From IMG/VR virus record IMGVR_UViG_2671180770_000027: a DNA stretch of 4,395 nucleotides; one strand, given 5' to 3'. This document shows, one piece after another, positions 1,208 through 4,395 of the stretch. Origin of the DNA: a virus (taxonomy: Duplodnaviria > Heunggongvirae > Uroviricota > Caudoviricetes). The notes below the pieces were generated by a model that was not told where the DNA came from, searched no databases, and worked only from the letters and a program-made list of their open reading frames with translations. The position numbers and the translations under genes are program-made. How positions within the stretch are numbered: the first letter of the stretch is position 1; the number at the start of each line of letters is the position of its first letter.

Positions 1208-1429
1208 ATGGCAGACATAATTGATTCAGCATCAGAAATTGAAGAATTACAGCGCAACACAGCAATAAAAATGCGCCGCCTGAACCACCAGGCTATATCT
1301 GCCACTCATTGTTGTGAGTGTGGCGATCCGATAGATGAACGAAGACGACTGGCCGTTCAGGGTTGTCGGACTTGTGCCAGTTGCCAGCAAGATCTGGAGC
1401 TTATCAGTAAACAGAGAGGTTCGAAGTGA
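1208..1429 (+). CDS. TraR/DksA-family C4 zinc-finger protein (73 aa), probably an RNA polymerase secondary-channel binding regulator
   Basis: The translation contains CxxC-X17-CxxC (CCEC…17 residues…CASC), the spacing diagnostic of the DksA/TraR zinc finger, in a 73-aa protein the same size as F-plasmid TraR. I recall lambda encoding a TraR homologue (Orf73) at this position, but cannot verify it here. Confidence 0.82.
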   Translation: MADIIDSASEIEELQRNTAIKMRRLNHQAISATHCCECGDPIDERRRLAVQGCRTCASCQQDLELISKQRGSK

Positions 1430-1582
1430 GCGAAATTAACTAGAAGCCAAAGATAAAATCATCGCTGAGCAGGAGAAAATCGCTAACGGAGAAAAGACAG
1501 TAAGTCAGTATATGAAAACCGCATGATATCATCAGATAAAAATCGGTCGTAAAGCGAAATATTAATACCAGAACAAACGAGT

Positions 1583-1604
1583 CGAGGTAAATTATATTAC
1601 CTCG
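1583..1604 (-). terminator. Perfect 8-bp inverted repeat (CGAGGTAA-ATTATA-TTACCTCG); possible transcript 3' end for the opposite-strand membrane gene
   Basis: Seen directly: cgaggtaa (1583-1590), loop attata, ttacctcg (1597-1604). It lies about 36 nt downstream of the minus-strand ORF stop (1640-1642). On the minus strand it is followed by ACTCGTTTGTTCT, which is T-rich but not a clean U-tract. Confidence 0.35.
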
Positions 1605-1639
1605 ATAAATTAACTAAAACTTGCCCGCTATATACTATA

Positions 1640-2242
1640 TCATTCAGTATCATCACGCGCGGTCTGTGCATATGTCACTACTGCACCTAATATATTAATT
1701 TTCTTTTCAACATAGATAATATTATCGTACTCATAATTGCCATACGGATAGCAAATGCGAATATTCTCATGTAGATCGGGGTCATCCACCTCAGCTCCAG
1801 AACAACTTTTTGAACTACCGGAAGTATACCGATACGGTGCAACGTAAGACGATGTCTCTCCAGGCAAAAAATAAGTTAGTGTCGTAAGGGGTATAATCAG
1901 AAAAAATCCAGCAAATATGCACATCCCTGCATAAACCTTAAGGTATGCTGACAGACTCTTCCAGCCGCTTTGTTTTACTATCCCCTTCTTAACCCAAAAC
2001 AGAGATAACAGAAAAGCTATTCCCATGCTAAACAGAATGTAATAGTGGGATATACTCTGATTAAGAAACGTGACCCTGTAGATATCTGCCCGCCACCAGA
2101 AGAAAAGGAAAATAAAGATCAGCCCTGAAACTGTCATGCAAATCAAATAAGGATACGAATCTTTTTTCATGTTTAGCGCCCATAAAATTTTTCCTGACCC
2201 GGACAAATTTACCATCCATTTTTTGCGCAGAAAATAGCTCAT
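1640..2242 (-). CDS. Opposite-strand accessory (moron) gene encoding a predicted integral membrane protein with three hydrophobic helices and a ~75-aa C-terminal domain; function unknown
   Basis: A 200-codon ORF on the minus strand inside an AT-rich island. Three hydrophobic segments are visible (YLICMTVSGLIFIFLFFWW; YYILFSMGIAFLLSLFWV; AGMCIFAGFFLIIPLTTLTYFL), with basic residues flanking them. It is the only ORF in the window opposed to the pL operon direction. The start is ambiguous (Met1, Met10 or Met25; none has a strong SD). I do not recognise the family. Confidence 0.7.
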   Translation of the reverse strand: MSYFLRKKWMVNLSGSGKILWALNMKKDSYPYLICMTVSGLIFIFLFFWWRADIYRVTFLNQSISHYYILFSMGIAFLLSLFWVKKGIVKQSGWKSLSAYLKVYAGMCIFAGFFLIIPLTTLTYFLPGETSSYVAPYRYTSGSSKSCSGAEVDDPDLHENIRICYPYGNYEYDNIIYVEKKINILGAVVTYAQTARDDTE

Positions 2243-2484
2243 TACTTACTGCACAATAATACACAAAATTGCGTAAATTTTTTGCATGGATTTTAGCTCT
2301 TTCAGCCGACATTTAAGGGGTAAATAGCATTTCCTAAAAGCAACTGCACCAACCCAACAGAATGGGCTACCGCTTACGTTGAGAGCAAAAAAGTGTATAG
2401 CAGCAATGAACAGCATCCTCACACTGACGAGGATTTCTTTTATCTGAACTCGCTACGGCGGGTTTTGTTTTATGGAGATGATAA

Positions 2485-2652
2485 ATGCACTTCCGAGTCA
2501 CAGGTGAATGGAATGGAGAACCATTCAACAGAGTTATCGAAGCCGAGAACATCAGCGACTGCTATGACCACTGGGTGCTGTGGGCGCAGATAGCACATGC
2601 AGACGTAACCAATATTCGAATTGAAGAACTGAAAGAACACCAAGCCGCCTGA
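2485..2652 (+). CDS. Small 55-aa ORF, a conserved-looking lambdoid early-left small protein (possibly lambda orf55-like)
   Basis: ATG at 2485 is preceded by GGAG (2474-2477) at 7-nt spacing, and the frame is open for 55 codons to the TGA at 2650-2652 (MHFRVTGEWNGEPFNRVIEAENISDCYDHWVLWAQIAHADVTNIRIEELKEHQAA). It is below the 60-aa cutoff of the ORF track. The overlapping 66-aa track ORF (2393..2593) is in another frame and lacks an SD. Confidence 0.65.
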   Translation: MHFRVTGEWNGEPFNRVIEAENISDCYDHWVLWAQIAHADVTNIRIEELKEHQAA

Positions 2653-2665
2653 TGGCGGTTTTTTT
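2645..2665 (+). terminator. Short GC hairpin followed by a T7 run; candidate weak intrinsic terminator or attenuator after the 55-aa ORF
   Basis: ccgcc (2645-2649), loop tgat, ggcgg (2654-2658), then ttttttt (2659-2665). The stem is only 5-6 bp, so strength is doubtful. An N-antiterminated pL transcript would read through. Confidence 0.4.
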
Positions 2666-2679
2666 ATTGGAGACAAGAA

Positions 2680-3024
2680 ATGTCAGATTTGGCTATGAAG
2701 GTTTTGAAATGGCAATCGACTGGCGATGTAGGCATCAGTAGCGCAACTCTTGCCTCAATCGCATGTGGACTGAAAAAGAATATCTATGGTCATAGCTTCG
2801 GTGCTCCACATGACGCAGCCGATTTCCGACGATGCGTTGCACTTGTTGAGCAGATTCCAGAAATCAGAGATTCATTCGACAAGGTTGCAAAGCGCGTTCC
2901 GGCATTCAAAGGAATCCTCAACGAATGGGATTCACTCGTTGCTCTGTTGAAGTCTGAAATGAAGACGTACGGGAACAAAGCACCAGAGACTTACAGAAGA
3001 ATCAGCGAGCTACGCAAGGACTAA
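2680..3024 (+). CDS. Hypothetical protein, 114 aa, function unknown (occupies the pre-xis slot)
   Basis: ATG at 2680 is preceded by GGAG (2671-2674) at 5-nt spacing. It is a clean 114-codon ORF ending in TAA at 3022-3024. The product is soluble with no hydrophobic segments and no motif I recognise. Confidence 0.75.
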   Translation: MSDLAMKVLKWQSTGDVGISSATLASIACGLKKNIYGHSFGAPHDAADFRRCVALVEQIPEIRDSFDKVAKRVPAFKGILNEWDSLVALLKSEMKTYGNKAPETYRRISELRKD

Positions 3025-3080
3025 CCCGCCTCACACTCGATGAGGCCTGTTCATTTCTCAAGATATCCAGACCTACCATC

Positions 3081-3101
3081 GCCGCATCAATGCGGCTTTT
3101 T
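3081..3101 (+). terminator. GC-rich hairpin plus T-run; candidate intrinsic terminator between the 114-aa ORF and xis
   Basis: gccgca (3081-3086), loop tcaa, tgcggc (3091-3096), then ttttt (3097-3101). It has the canonical rho-independent shape and sits immediately before the cII-type site. Confidence 0.5.
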
Positions 3102-3102
3102 C

Positions 3103-3140
3103 TTGCGTGTAATTGCGGAGACTTTGCGATGTACTTGACA
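3103..3140 (+). promoter_or_regulatory. cII-dependent pI-like promoter: TTGC-N6-TTGC activator site (3103-3116), with the inferred -10 and start at or inside the xis start region
   Basis: Direct: TTGCgtgtaaTTGC at 3103-3116, the consensus tetramer repeat bound by lambda CII at pRE, pI and paQ (established knowledge). Its position 13 nt before the xis ATG matches lambda pI, whose transcript begins inside xis so that Int is made without Xis. Confidence 0.7.
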
Positions 3141-3347
3141 CTTCAGGAGTGGAACGCACGCCAGCGACGCCCAAGAAGCCTTGAAACAGTTCGTCGATGG
3201 GTGCGCGAATGCAGGATATTCCCTCCTCCGGTTAAGGATGGAAGAGAGTATCTGTTCCACGAATCAGCGGTAAAGGTTGACTTAAATCGACCAGTAACAG
3301 GTAGCCTTTTGAAGAGGATCAGAAATGGGAAGAAGGCGAAGTCATGA
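3129..3347 (+). CDS. xis: Excisionase Xis (72 aa), lambda-type
   Basis: ATG at 3129 with GGAG at 3117-3120. The translation MYLTLQEWNARQRRPRSLETVRRWVRECRIFPPPVKDGREYLFHESAVKVDLNRPVTGSLLKRIRNGKKAKS matches lambda Xis as recalled. The 3' end overlaps int by 23 nt. The track's longer version from 3090 has no support. Confidence 0.95.
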   Translation: MYLTLQEWNARQRRPRSLETVRRWVRECRIFPPPVKDGREYLFHESAVKVDLNRPVTGSLLKRIRNGKKAKS

Positions 3348-4395
3348 GCGCCGGGATTTACCCCCTAATCTTTATATAAGAAACAATGGATATTACTGCT
3401 ACAGGGACCCAAGGACGGGTAAAGAGTTTGGATTAGGCCGAGACAGGAGGATAGCAATCACTGAAGCTATACAGGCCAACATTGAGTTATTTTCAGGACA
3501 CAAACACAAGCCTCTGACAGCGAGAATCAACAGTGATAATTCTGTTACGTTACATTCATGGCTTGATCGCTACGAAAAAATCCTCGCCAGCAGAGGAATC
3601 AAGCAGAAGACACTTATAAATTACATGAGCAAAATTAAAGCAATAAGGAGGGGTCTGTCTGATGCTCCACTTGAAGACATCACCACAAAAGAAATTGCAG
3701 CAATGCTCAATGGATACATAGACGAGGGCAAGGCGGCGTCAGCCAAGTTAATCAGATCAACACTGAGCGATGCATTCCGAGAGGCAATAGCTGAAGGCCA
3801 TATAACAACAAACCCGGTCGCTGCCACTCGCGCAGCAAAATCAGAGGTAAGGAGATCAAGACTTACGGCTGACGAATACCTGAAAATTTATCAAGCAGCA
3901 GAATCATCACCATGTTGGCTCAGACTTGCAATGGAACTGGCTGTTGTTACCGGGCAACGAGTTGGTGATTTATGCGAAATGAAGTGGTCTGATATCGTAG
4001 ATGGATATCTTTATGTCGAGCAAAGCAAAACAGGCGTAAAAATTGCCATCCCTACAACATTGCATGTTGATGCTCTCGGAATATCAATGAAGGAAACACT
4101 TGATAAATGCAAAGAGATTCTTGGCGGAGAAACCATAATTGCATCTACTCGTCGCGAACCGCTTTCATCCAGCACAGTATCAAGGTATTTTATGCGCGCA
4201 CGAAAAGCATCAGGTCTTTCCTTCGAAGGGGATCCGCCTACCTTTCACGAGTTGCGCAGTTTGTCTGCAAGACTCTATGAGAAGCAGATAAGCGATAAGT
4301 TTGCTCAACATCTTCTCGGGCATAAGTCGGACACCATGGCATCACAGTATCGTGATGACAGAGGCAGGGAGTGGGACAAAATTGAAATCAAATAA
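3325..4395 (+). CDS. int: Tyrosine recombinase / integrase (356 aa), lambda Int-type
   Basis: ATG at 3325 with GAGGA (3313-3317) at 7-nt spacing. The N-terminal arm-binding region (MGRRRSHERRDLPPNLYIRNNGYYCYRDPRTGKEFGLGRDRRIAI) and the C-terminal catalytic region (…HELRSLSARLY…LLGHKSDTMASQYRDDRGREWDKIEIK, containing the R…H-x-x-R…Y signature) match lambda Int as recalled, nearly residue for residue. The stop is TAA at 4393-4395. Confidence 0.97.
   Translation: MGRRRSHERRDLPPNLYIRNNGYYCYRDPRTGKEFGLGRDRRIAITEAIQANIELFSGHKHKPLTARINSDNSVTLHSWLDRYEKILASRGIKQKTLINYMSKIKAIRRGLSDAPLEDITTKEIAAMLNGYIDEGKAASAKLIRSTLSDAFREAIAEGHITTNPVAATRAAKSEVRRSRLTADEYLKIYQAAESSPCWLRLAMELAVVTGQRVGDLCEMKWSDIVDGYLYVEQSKTGVKIAIPTTLHVDALGISMKETLDKCKEILGGETIIASTRREPLSSSTVSRYFMRARKASGLSFEGDPPTFHELRSLSARLYEKQISDKFAQHLLGHKSDTMASQYRDDRGREWDKIEIK

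Follow-up and report, generated by a model that had tools for sequence, protein, structure and literature searches.

Classical lambdoid morons in the sense of Juhala and Hendrix, such as HK97 gp15 and lambda bor and lom, are stretches of extra DNA that are missing from close relatives and have a distinct nucleotide composition. They carry promoter and terminator signals of their own, and are located between or against essential operons. One of these morons, HK97 gp15, reportedly encodes an inner-membrane exclusion protein. P22 SieA, T4 Imm and SieB of the lambda family resemble the protein described here in being small inner-membrane proteins of prophages or phages, and in their proposed site of action, the periplasm/inner-membrane step of genome entry. 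SieA, Imm and SieB are not known to have a periplasmic beta-barrel domain with conserved cysteines.

The closest known system is found in P2-like myovirus prophages. Rousset et al. 2022 (PMC9122126) defined the locus between their portal gene gpQ and replication gene gpA, beside cos, as the old/tin anti-phage hotspot; it also holds non-defence cargo such as partition systems and the cdt toxin. Table S5B of that study, which covers the hotspot in E. coli, lists "System #4", a single protein with three transmembrane (TM) helices, no Pfam and 470 occurrences, in a catalogue entry that gives neither name nor function (PMC9122126). As far as the supplementary tables of the study go, the System #4 family is absent from the cloned constructs.

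We analysed a window of 4,395 nucleotides (the whole stretch of IMG/VR record IMGVR_UViG_2671180770_000027 under study), which corresponds to the exo-to-int end of the pL operon in a lambdoid prophage of the phage 434 type. It carries a gene of the System #4 family (52% identity over 168 aa, E = 5e-57), with the same architecture of three TM helices followed by a C-terminal domain. Unlike System #4, the gene lies in the prophage of a lambdoid siphovirus, where it is antisense to the pL operon. A closer allele, WP_000711113 (~78% identical), is listed as "hypothetical" in Table S5A of Rousset et al. 2022 (PMC9122126).

Results

An AT-rich island in the ea22 slot

The GC content of the window dropped to 37.4% (303/811) at positions 1530-2340, compared with 47.9% in the left flank (1-1529) and 46.0% in the right flank (2341-4395). 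This difference in GC counts corresponded to z ~4.9 in a two-proportion test, and a 200-nt profile revealed an unbroken trough of 0.34-0.41 from ~1400 to 2400. The hand counts behind the original prediction were exact, with 15/60 GC at 1681-1740 and 20/60 at 2101-2160 inside the island, against 30/60 at 3901-3960 and 33/60 at 121-180 outside it. Pairwise blastn against lambda, 434 and mEp332 placed the breakpoints relative to lambda at 1441/1442 and 2414/2415. Together with the GC content, this delimits an AT-rich island at 1442-2414; the bounds of 1530-2340 proposed earlier were near the true ones, if slightly narrow on both sides.

The island replaces ea22 and ea8.5, which agrees with the earlier suggestion that it occupies the slot of non-essential early-left genes of lambda. 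Lambda carries ea22 and ea8.5 in this slot and 434, mEp332 and 2B8 carry the island, although these phages are otherwise ~97% identical. The synteny comparison thus revealed a presence/absence polymorphism among near-identical lambdoid phages. The full island was present only in 434 (2 records), mEp332 and 2B8 (2 records) among the 403 phage records that matched the window, while M60848, an old partial 434 fragment, matched the island end only. A tblastn search of 50,697 phage records with the protein likewise retrieved only 434, mEp332 and 2B8.

At the left edge, the last lambda-collinear stretch is an ea22 stub at 1426-1443 (plus strand), which consists of GTG plus four codons (MSEIN) followed by TAG; lambda homology stops at 1441. 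The N-terminus MSEIN matches both lambda Ea22 and the Ea22-like protein of the P2 hotspot. The stub runs into an out-of-frame internal ead/Ea22-like fragment at 1440-1484 (plus strand), a residue of cassette insertion. At the DNA level this fragment is 77% identical to the Ea22-like gene in P88-like prophages (L027 3503-3460; L020 7713-7756), with a translated match of LEAKDKIIAEQEKIA to LETKDNRIAELEKIA. The right edge is formed by the terminator tL4 of the pL operon at 2415-2443 (plus strand), which is annotated as t-L4 in M60848 and recovered by a terminator scan and by folding; lambda homology restarts at 2415. The ead/Ea22 family is the usual occupant of the same genomic position, and the cassette is bordered by Ea22-like remnants in the window as well as in P2-like prophages. 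In contrast to the soluble Ea22, the island protein is predicted to be membrane-bound; it is encoded on the opposite strand and is unrelated to Ea22. The cassette has destroyed ea22 and is not derived from it.

No IS-like terminal repeats or target duplications were found around the island, and a 10-nt perfect inverted pair (1532-1541 / 2438-2447) was close to chance expectation. A search of Rfam matched no RNA family.

One gene under purifying selection

Plus-strand open reading frames (ORFs) of at least 30 aa were limited to a single one of 30 aa (1755-1847) within the island, which bears out the claim that none reaches 60 aa. No minus-strand gene other than ORF 1640-2242 is present in the window, all remaining annotated genes being on the plus strand, as both the ORF list and the annotation indicated. 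A second minus-strand ORF of 56 aa (2246-2416), annotated for phage 434, does not overturn the single-gene claim, as a natural variant carries a frameshift in it and the P2-like versions do not have it. M60848 contains an old ORF-22+ frame, which was also rejected as a gene.

The coding sequence extends over 1640-2170 (minus strand) and comprises 176 aa plus stop. All homologues begin with MKKxSYP at the position of ATG 2170, and variant L023 has a TAG inside the N-terminal extension upstream of this ATG. By this comparison the true start is ATG 2170, which corrects the 200-aa RefSeq product and the 188-aa product of the phage 434 record to 176 aa.

Sequence comparison further indicated that the gene is under purifying selection, with a dN/dS of 0.05-0.16 over 22-45% protein divergence; in the comparisons with the more distant L020 and L012, the C-terminal domain had the lower values. 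In an alignment of 13 sequences from six genera, 33 columns were invariant. The ORF was kept intact in decayed prophages, namely Sp3 of O157:H7, in which int and bet are pseudogenised, and a KplE1-like remnant with an IS. These copies differed from the window by 5-6 synonymous and 1-2 non-synonymous changes. Intact copies thus occur in defective prophages whose immunity region is gone.

A predicted inner-membrane protein with a periplasmic domain

The protein is predicted to have three membrane helices in an N-in/C-out topology and a C-terminal five-strand beta-barrel of 75 aa in the periplasm. Only the 7-aa N-terminus and a lysine-rich loop of ~17 aa are predicted to be cytoplasmic. In 13 homologues, the N-terminus and loop 2 carried a net positive charge and loop 1 was neutral, in line with the positive-inside rule. 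The AlphaFold2 (AF2) pLDDT was 86.5 for the whole chain and 89.7 for the domain, and loop 1 formed a strand in the model. The hydrophobic helices, the charge pattern and the AF2 model support the earlier call of a membrane protein, and predict an inner-membrane location.

Conservation was strongest in the C-terminal domain, with a mean column identity of 0.72 versus 0.50-0.60 in the TM helices, which are nearly devoid of charged or polar pore-lining residues. The periplasmic motif CSGA.V..P.L...I.IC.P.G.Y was conserved, and exactly two cysteines were present in the C-terminal domain of 13/13 homologues. These two invariant cysteines are probably joined by a disulfide bond, and loop 1 and the 75-aa barrel are predicted to form a conserved periplasmic face.

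The protein matched no family in Pfam or NCBIfam, and the sole match of the 13 family members in Pfam and PHROG was the unannotated phrog_1416, which covers the C-terminal 88 aa only. PADLOC-DB v2 returned 0 families at E <= 1, and a profile search against PDB sequences found nothing. The remote-homology check originally suggested produced a topology and a confident AF2 fold, but no specific structural relative in PDB or BFVD. Among known systems, small beta-barrels of the DUF1093 (YxeA-like) and OB / cold-shock types also come close. No homology to the characterised exclusion families SieA, SieB, Imm, gp15, Cor and Llp was found via Pfam, NCBIfam, annotated PHROG or tblastn, and neither sequence nor fold similarity to known exclusion or defence proteins was detected. 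The classical morons HK97 gp15, lambda bor and lom likewise had no sequence relationship to the island gene. Profile matches in 10 repeats of P0117, a giant protein of 3074 aa, were treated as spurious because these Cys/Gly repeat segments are without the family motif. A literature search for ECs0804, WP_000120056, WP_000711113, WP_000711110, WP_000120065 and NP_308831 found no paper in the library covered.

Predicted expression signals

Signals upstream of the gene were evaluated in an alignment of six diverged upstream regions. A predicted extended -10 promoter element, TGGTAAATT, is located at 2206-2214 (minus strand), with a predicted transcription start at ~2199 (minus strand). The extended -10 pattern alone occurs at chance frequency in the window, and its form TG.TAA.TT was unchanged and equally far from the ATG in copies of lambdoid, E. 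coli P88-like, two Salmonella P2-like and Cedecea origin. A weak -35-like hexamer, TTTTCT, lies 17 bp upstream of the -10 element (2229-2234, minus strand); its TTT was invariant, and it may serve as the -35 element. The putative Shine-Dalgarno sequence is a GGG at 2180-2182 (minus strand), 9-10 nt before ATG 2170, in which two G were invariant.

Downstream of the gene, a terminator scan and RNA folding pointed to a terminator-like hairpin at 1572-1605 (minus strand), with a 9-bp stem (1582-1605) and a U-rich tail, 35 nt past the stop codon. The 76-nt 3' region (1565-1640, minus strand) folded at -17.6 kcal/mol (z = -2.4), and L020 had a weaker hairpin in the homologous place.

Distribution in lambdoid prophages, P2-like prophages and chromosomes

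Of 5426 complete E. coli genomes, 916 contained the island, among them O157:H7 Sakai in its prophage Sp3 (locus ECs_0804). Moreover, a block of ~900 bp was collinear with the portal-to-gpA hotspot of P2-like prophages at 73-77% identity. Homologues that are 52-78% identical were located between gpQ and gpA in P2-like prophages of E. coli and Salmonella; the window copy itself lies outside this hotspot. The cassette common to the P2-like prophages corresponds to 1550-2307 of the window, and in these prophages it takes the place of the 3' end of an Ea22-like gene. Prophage L024 contains both an island-family gene and a sieB gene.

To the right of the cassette gene, a non-coding segment at 2249-2366 (minus strand) is homologous to the backbone flanking the gpQ-gpA hotspot in P88-like (P2-like) phages, with two collinear matches (L027 3123-3065 and 2986-2923) and a local alignment score of 44 versus 15.8 +/- 2.2 in shuffles. 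The window copy hence retains ~120 bp of hotspot-flanking backbone, and matching backbone occurs without the cassette in L027 and P88-like phages. Degenerate 10-bp-phased TTGTGCA repeats at 2249-2280 were considered as a regulator array of the cassette and rejected, as they belong to this backbone, are present without the cassette, and fall outside the minimal cassette. Because the block is collinear with the gpQ-gpA region including its flanks, the cassette must have moved between the lambdoid and P2-like families together with its flanks, as a block that homologous Ea22-like genes carried across.

Phage-borne homologues of the gene likewise had 38-43% GC, within loci of 52-55% GC. In Enterobacter, a syntenic, vertically inherited chromosomal clade was found in at least six species beside a GGDEF sensor and an AI-2E transporter, with host-like GC and no prophage context. 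A Klebsiella copy was also chromosomal. The Enterobacter orthologues were 63-97% identical among species, and the two neighbour genes were 82-86% and 95-97% identical to the reference L008. No toxin or partner gene adjoined the family gene in any of the contexts seen.

Discussion

As far as in-silico analysis goes, our results support the earlier reading of the island as a moron, that is, a self-contained accessory cassette that fills the ea22 slot of the pL operon in antisense orientation. Like the classical morons, it is present or absent among near-identical phages, differs in composition from its surroundings and runs against its operon. It also has a putative promoter element and a predicted terminator hairpin of its own. 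In addition, the cassette recurs in an unrelated phage family. We are highly confident of the anatomy of the island as described here.

The original prediction also raised an exclusion or defence role, for which the island protein is a plausible, if tentative, candidate. This idea is strengthened because homologues reside in the experimentally defined gpQ-gpA hotspot, where one of them is a listed candidate system. It is weakened because a vertically inherited Enterobacter clade with host-like GC exists and no known defence or exclusion family was matched. Since the P2 hotspot also holds non-defence cargo, location alone is weak evidence. The gene is a good candidate for phage exclusion. In a repressed prophage pL would be silent, so that the cassette would have to be transcribed from its own promoter. 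The protein would then insert in the inner membrane, where its periplasmic domain would interfere with genome entry of incoming phages at the periplasm/inner-membrane interface. The lysogen would be protected by superinfection exclusion and the cell would not be killed. Upon induction, antiterminated pL transcription would oppose the gene and damp its expression. A more specific proposal is that the family represents a new type of single-gene, envelope-acting phage exclusion, in which a three-pass anchor with a disulfide-bonded, OB-like periplasmic barrel blocks heterologous phage genome entry, and which is shuttled between the lambdoid exo-xis and P2-like cos-proximal hotspots via Ea22-like genes. 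We regard this proposal as possible but doubtful.

The protein could instead have a lysogenic-conversion or cellular envelope function without any link to phage attack, the gene having been captured from a chromosomal family and carried for the benefit of the host. It could, for example, confer immunity against bacteriocins or against periplasmic toxins of contact-dependent or T6SS origin, or modulate envelope or signalling components; we consider this explanation somewhat unlikely. The single-locus Enterobacter clade outside prophages, like the chromosomal Klebsiella copy, argues for a cellular role that does not necessarily involve phages. The strongly conserved periplasmic motif suggests a constant target rather than a fast-changing phage target, and bacteriocin-immunity proteins are typically small and polytopic in the inner membrane. 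The known non-defence cargo of the P2 hotspot would fit as well. However, the family gene has no adjacent toxin or partner gene, and no immunity family was matched in Pfam or NCBIfam. Furthermore, evolution is faster in the Enterobacter orthologues than in the neighbouring genes, a pattern that is also compatible with an arms race.

Abortive infection, in which the protein would sense infection, depolarise or permeabilise the inner membrane and kill the cell before the phage cycle ends, is distinctly unlikely. In known systems, transmembrane proteins mostly act as suicide effectors (Rousset et al. 2022, PMC9122126), and the gene family is located in a defence hotspot. Yet this is a single gene without a sensor partner, its cytoplasmic parts are so small that they offer nothing obvious for sensing cytoplasmic infection cues, and its conserved surface is periplasmic. 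The near absence of charged or polar pore-lining residues from the TM helices and the lack of a PADLOC match also count against a membrane-permeabilising effector. We give only a slim chance to a role in phage development, as a gene activated by CII during the establishment of lysogeny that stands in for the displaced pro-lysogenic Ea22. Genes of the exo-xis region, which includes the ea22 slot, bias the lysis-lysogeny decision according to two studies (PMC7093339, PMC3824215), and the phage 434 record (OL657226) annotates a CII consensus TTGY-N6-TTGY upstream of the gene, implying CII activation. This site, at 2253-2266 of the window, reads TTGT-N6-TTGT, compared with a TTGC-N6-TTGC that straddles the -35 in CII-dependent lambdoid promoters of the pRE, pI and paQ type. 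However, the consensus occurs at chance level in the window (2 found, one of which is the known pI site, versus 1.13 expected), and we rejected the CII-site reading on this ground. The annotated site also falls within the repeats inherited from the P2-like backbone, where lambda CII is absent. The conserved promoter element lies 40 bp further downstream, and the gene persists in defective prophages missing the immunity region as well as in P2-like phages and chromosomes. Finally, the gene might be a non-functional, decaying passenger ORF of a variable region, as the databases contain many truncated or frameshifted alleles (of 112, 96 and 81 aa) and the phrog_1416 match is confined to part of the protein. 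The low dN/dS, the invariant columns across six genera, the confident AF2 fold, and the conserved positions of the promoter and Shine-Dalgarno sequences make decay very unlikely, with a probability close to negligible.

The cassette is common in complete E. coli genomes, occurs in Sp3 and has related alleles in P2-like prophages of E. coli and Salmonella. Few unexplained cargoes are as frequent as this family in the P2 hotspot, whose anti-phage role has been validated by experiment. The shared flanks, with an Ea22-like fragment on one side and P2 hotspot backbone on the other, document a concrete route for cargo between unrelated temperate phage families, and suggest that the lambdoid exo-xis region be searched for defence cargo. 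If the proposal of a shuttled exclusion family is true, the ea22 slot would correspond in lambdoid phages to the defence hotspot of P2, and the family would be active in about one-sixth of E. coli genomes, O157:H7 included.

Composition and boundaries of the island

The window covers the distal end of a lambdoid pL operon, with the gene order exo C-terminus, orf60a, orf63, orf61, a TraR/DksA zinc-finger gene, the AT-rich island, ORF55, ORF114, xis and int. Phage 434 (OL657226) is 97.7% identical to it over the full length, and phage mEp332 is 99.6% identical in the island region (1500-2480). The four GC counts made by hand for the original prediction were all exact on recount, and the observation of an AT-rich island is confirmed. 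GC content was 37.4% at 1530-2340 versus 47.9% and 46.0% in the flanks (z ~4.9; two-proportion test on base counts), with a single unbroken trough from ~1400 to 2400 in a 200-nt sliding profile. As had been claimed, the island is devoid of long plus-strand ORFs, none exceeding 30 aa.

Island boundaries were determined by pairwise comparison of the window with lambda. Positions 1-1441 are collinear with lambda into the start of ea22, of which five codons are included (GTG 1426 to TAG 1443), 1442-2414 takes the place of lambda ea22 and ea8.5, and collinearity resumes at 2415-2664 with the terminator tL4 and ORF55. In the annotation of M60848, tL4 lies at the right edge of the island. ORF114 (2665-3080) is an additional insertion, and xis-int occupies 3081-4395. 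The ORF114 module, present in phage 434 and missing from lambda and mEp332, is a second mosaic module with terminator-like hairpins on both sides; ORF114 belongs to PHROG_1229 (function unknown) and has a homologue next to torI in a KplE1-like prophage remnant (L023, 8160-8504). Two more terminator-like hairpins with T-runs flank ORF55 on the plus (pL) strand (2446-2465 and 2642-2661), which together with tL4 gives three within ~250 bp on that strand. Over 1400-2700, seven such hairpins were found versus 1.2 expected from shuffled sequences. Just beyond attP, outside the window (L001, the 434 sequence, 5889-5981), phage 434 has an annotated T3SS effector zinc metalloprotease (NleC-like), a further moron of this phage.

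Start codon and predicted expression signals

The mechanical ORF of the minus-strand gene encodes 200 aa (1640-2242) and starts at ATG 2242, as in RefSeq/PGAP; the phage 434 record starts at TTG 2206 (188 aa). Comparative evidence indicates that these public records are probably misannotated and that the true start is probably ATG 2170, giving 176 aa, for three reasons. Homologues from Salmonella, Klebsiella, Enterobacter, Cedecea, Citrobacter and Serratia are all 169-180 aa long and begin with MKKxSYP. The variant in L023 (96.8% identical) has an in-frame TAG inside the 24-codon extension, and PGAP places its start at the 176-aa position. Finally, a conserved, predicted promoter element lies downstream of ATG 2242 and overlaps the first base of TTG 2206, so that a transcript from ~2199 would contain neither codon. 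The 176-aa ORF has dN/dS values of 0.05-0.16 against six homologues at 0.5-41% protein divergence (Nei-Gojobori), which marks it as a real gene under constraint. A second minus-strand ORF annotated in phage 434 (2246-2416) was rejected; it is frameshifted in L023, and the P2-like versions hold no intact counterpart.

We aligned the ~95 bp upstream of the ATG in six copies, namely the lambdoid one, one from a P88-like prophage of E. coli, those of two P2-like prophage lineages of Salmonella, and one from an island in Cedecea; identity to the window protein is only 55-78% for the proteins that they encode. Invariant on the minus strand were a predicted extended -10 element (TG.TAA.TT, 2214-2206), a TTT at the -35-like position (2234-2229; 17-bp spacer) and a GG 9-10 nt upstream of the ATG (part of a GGG triplet in the window). 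The TG.TAA.TT pattern by itself occurs at chance frequency within the window; the evidence for a promoter is its fixed position in diverged sequences, not its frequency. A hairpin with a 9-bp stem and a U-rich tail lies 35 nt past the stop codon on the same strand.

The encoded protein

Neither Pfam, NCBIfam nor PADLOC yielded a family match. The sole PHROG match, phrog_1416 (function unknown), spans only the C-terminal 88 residues. N-terminally truncated alleles (P0131, P0133, P0138 and P0085; 112, 96 and 81 aa) match window ~1640-1975 and retain TM3 plus the C-domain or less; the 112-aa allele occurs on at least 1000 contigs. The existence of these alleles is probably why PHROG_1416 models just 90 residues. 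Only 61 proteins were recovered when 1.8 billion representatives were searched with a profile. The full-length matches that we inspected (~165-200 aa) share the same architecture, the remainder are shorter fragments, and one repeat protein was judged spurious.

In the confident AlphaFold2 model (mean pLDDT 86.5), three long helices are followed by a five-strand barrel at the C-terminus; this domain modelled by itself reached 89.7. Charge counts over 13 homologues predict a cytoplasmic N-terminus and a cytoplasmic, lysine-rich loop 2, with loop 1 and the acidic C-domain on the periplasmic side. The C-domain contains exactly two cysteines in 13/13 homologues, consistent with a periplasmic disulfide. 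The predicted periplasmic parts are the best conserved, and in the more diverged comparisons the C-domain also has the lower dN/dS.

Distribution and chromosomal copies

Among 50,697 phage records, the gene was present only in 434, mEp332 and 2B8. The island was found in 916 of the 5426 complete E. coli genomes, in every case in the chromosome. Examples include an apparently complete lambdoid prophage at the lambda attachment site, the defective prophage Sp3 of O157:H7 Sakai (ECs_0804; int and bet pseudogenised) and a KplE1-like remnant that is itself broken by an IS. In P2-like prophages of Salmonella and E. coli, homologues with 59-78% identity occupy the interval from gpQ (portal) to gpA (replication). 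A scan of species-representative genomes detected the gene only in Enterobacteriaceae. One contig assigned to a MAG of Candidatus Nanosynbacter (JARKOR010000073.1, 3561 bp) carries this E. coli prophage segment, with a 99% identical gene and exo and TraR matches, almost certainly through binning contamination.

Six or more Enterobacter species carry the gene at a single chromosomal locus, beside genes for a GGDEF sensor and for an AI-2E transporter, and its GC content there is host-like. These copies are 63-97% identical between species, and identity to the reference locus L008 is 82-86% for one neighbour gene and 95-97% for the other, which implies that the gene evolves faster than its neighbours. 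A Klebsiella copy is likewise chromosomal; the Cedecea copy is AT-rich and next to an integrase fragment. About 7 kb from the homologue, a gene for a reverse transcriptase (RVT_1) and, after it, an ORF of 197 aa (L008, 1-1238) form a possible defence locus of the retron or DRT type, with no established tie to the gene.

Exchange between lambdoid and P2-like phages

Sequence comparison indicates that 434-type lambdoid and P88-type P2-like phages have a ~900-bp block in common, consisting in the same order of an Ea22-like remnant, the cassette (the gene with its predicted flanking signals) and a flank of the gpQ-gpA hotspot. Window 2307-1550 is 76% identical to the P88-like prophage L020, 1440-1483 matches an Ea22-like gene of the hotspot, and 2249-2366 matches the backbone bordering it (local alignment score 44 versus 15.8 ± 2.2 for shuffles). 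Comparison of two P88-like prophages, with (L026) and without (L027) the cassette, revealed that the 712-bp cassette displaces the last 220 nt of an Ea22-like gene that is intact in L027 (3162-3752); hence, the ead/Ea22 family is common to both phage families. The window retains two ea22 remnants at 1426-1484: the 5' stub, of five codons (MSEIN*), and an internal, out-of-frame piece of another Ea22-like gene, the one that is intact in L027. No IS-like ends of the island were found. We infer that exchange occurred via the Ea22-like genes present in both families.

Phased (A/T)TTGTGCA direct repeats of 10-bp period just upstream (window 2249-2280, minus strand; L027 3065-3123; ~7880-7925 in the Salmonella P2-like prophage L005) are backbone rather than cassette. 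They lie at the hotspot's left border regardless of cargo, both in P88-like prophages and in the P2-like prophages of Salmonella, are kept in prophages without the cassette, and are degenerate in the lambdoid copy; no known binding protein was found for them. Because the lambdoid copy contains P2 backbone sequence, transfer from P2-like to lambdoid phages is tentatively favoured.

Possible function

Rousset et al. (2022) define a hotspot of anti-phage systems between gpQ and gpA, where P2 has old and tin. System #4 in their Table S5B, a lone protein without Pfam match described as "3 TM" (470 occurrences), shares 52% identity with the protein of the window; a closer allele, WP_000711113, is "hypothetical" in Table S5A, and their cloned constructs do not include this family. 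The 434 genome announcement calls the gene "putative membrane protein" and describes morons unlike those of lambda. No mention of its locus tags or accessions was found in the literature searched.

The idea that the island is a moron is supported by replacement of lambda ea22 and ea8.5, foreign GC content and the same block in P2-like prophages. As to its role, the reading that we consider most likely, though tentatively, is that while pL is repressed the cassette would be transcribed from its own predicted promoter, the protein would enter the inner membrane, and its periplasmic domain would hamper genome entry by incoming phages. An envelope or immunity function unrelated to phages, favoured by the chromosomal clade in Enterobacter, is somewhat less probable. 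An abortive-infection effector is unlikely, given the tiny cytoplasmic parts.

Still less probable is a developmental function under CII control; the CII-type site in the 434 record (TTGT-N6-TTGT, 2253-2266) was rejected, as this pattern occurs at chance frequency; the site lies outside the minimal cassette. That the ORF is non-functional is very improbable. The cassette is a prophage moron and uncharacterised candidate defence cargo, and its prevalence and association with the hotspot make it worth testing directly.
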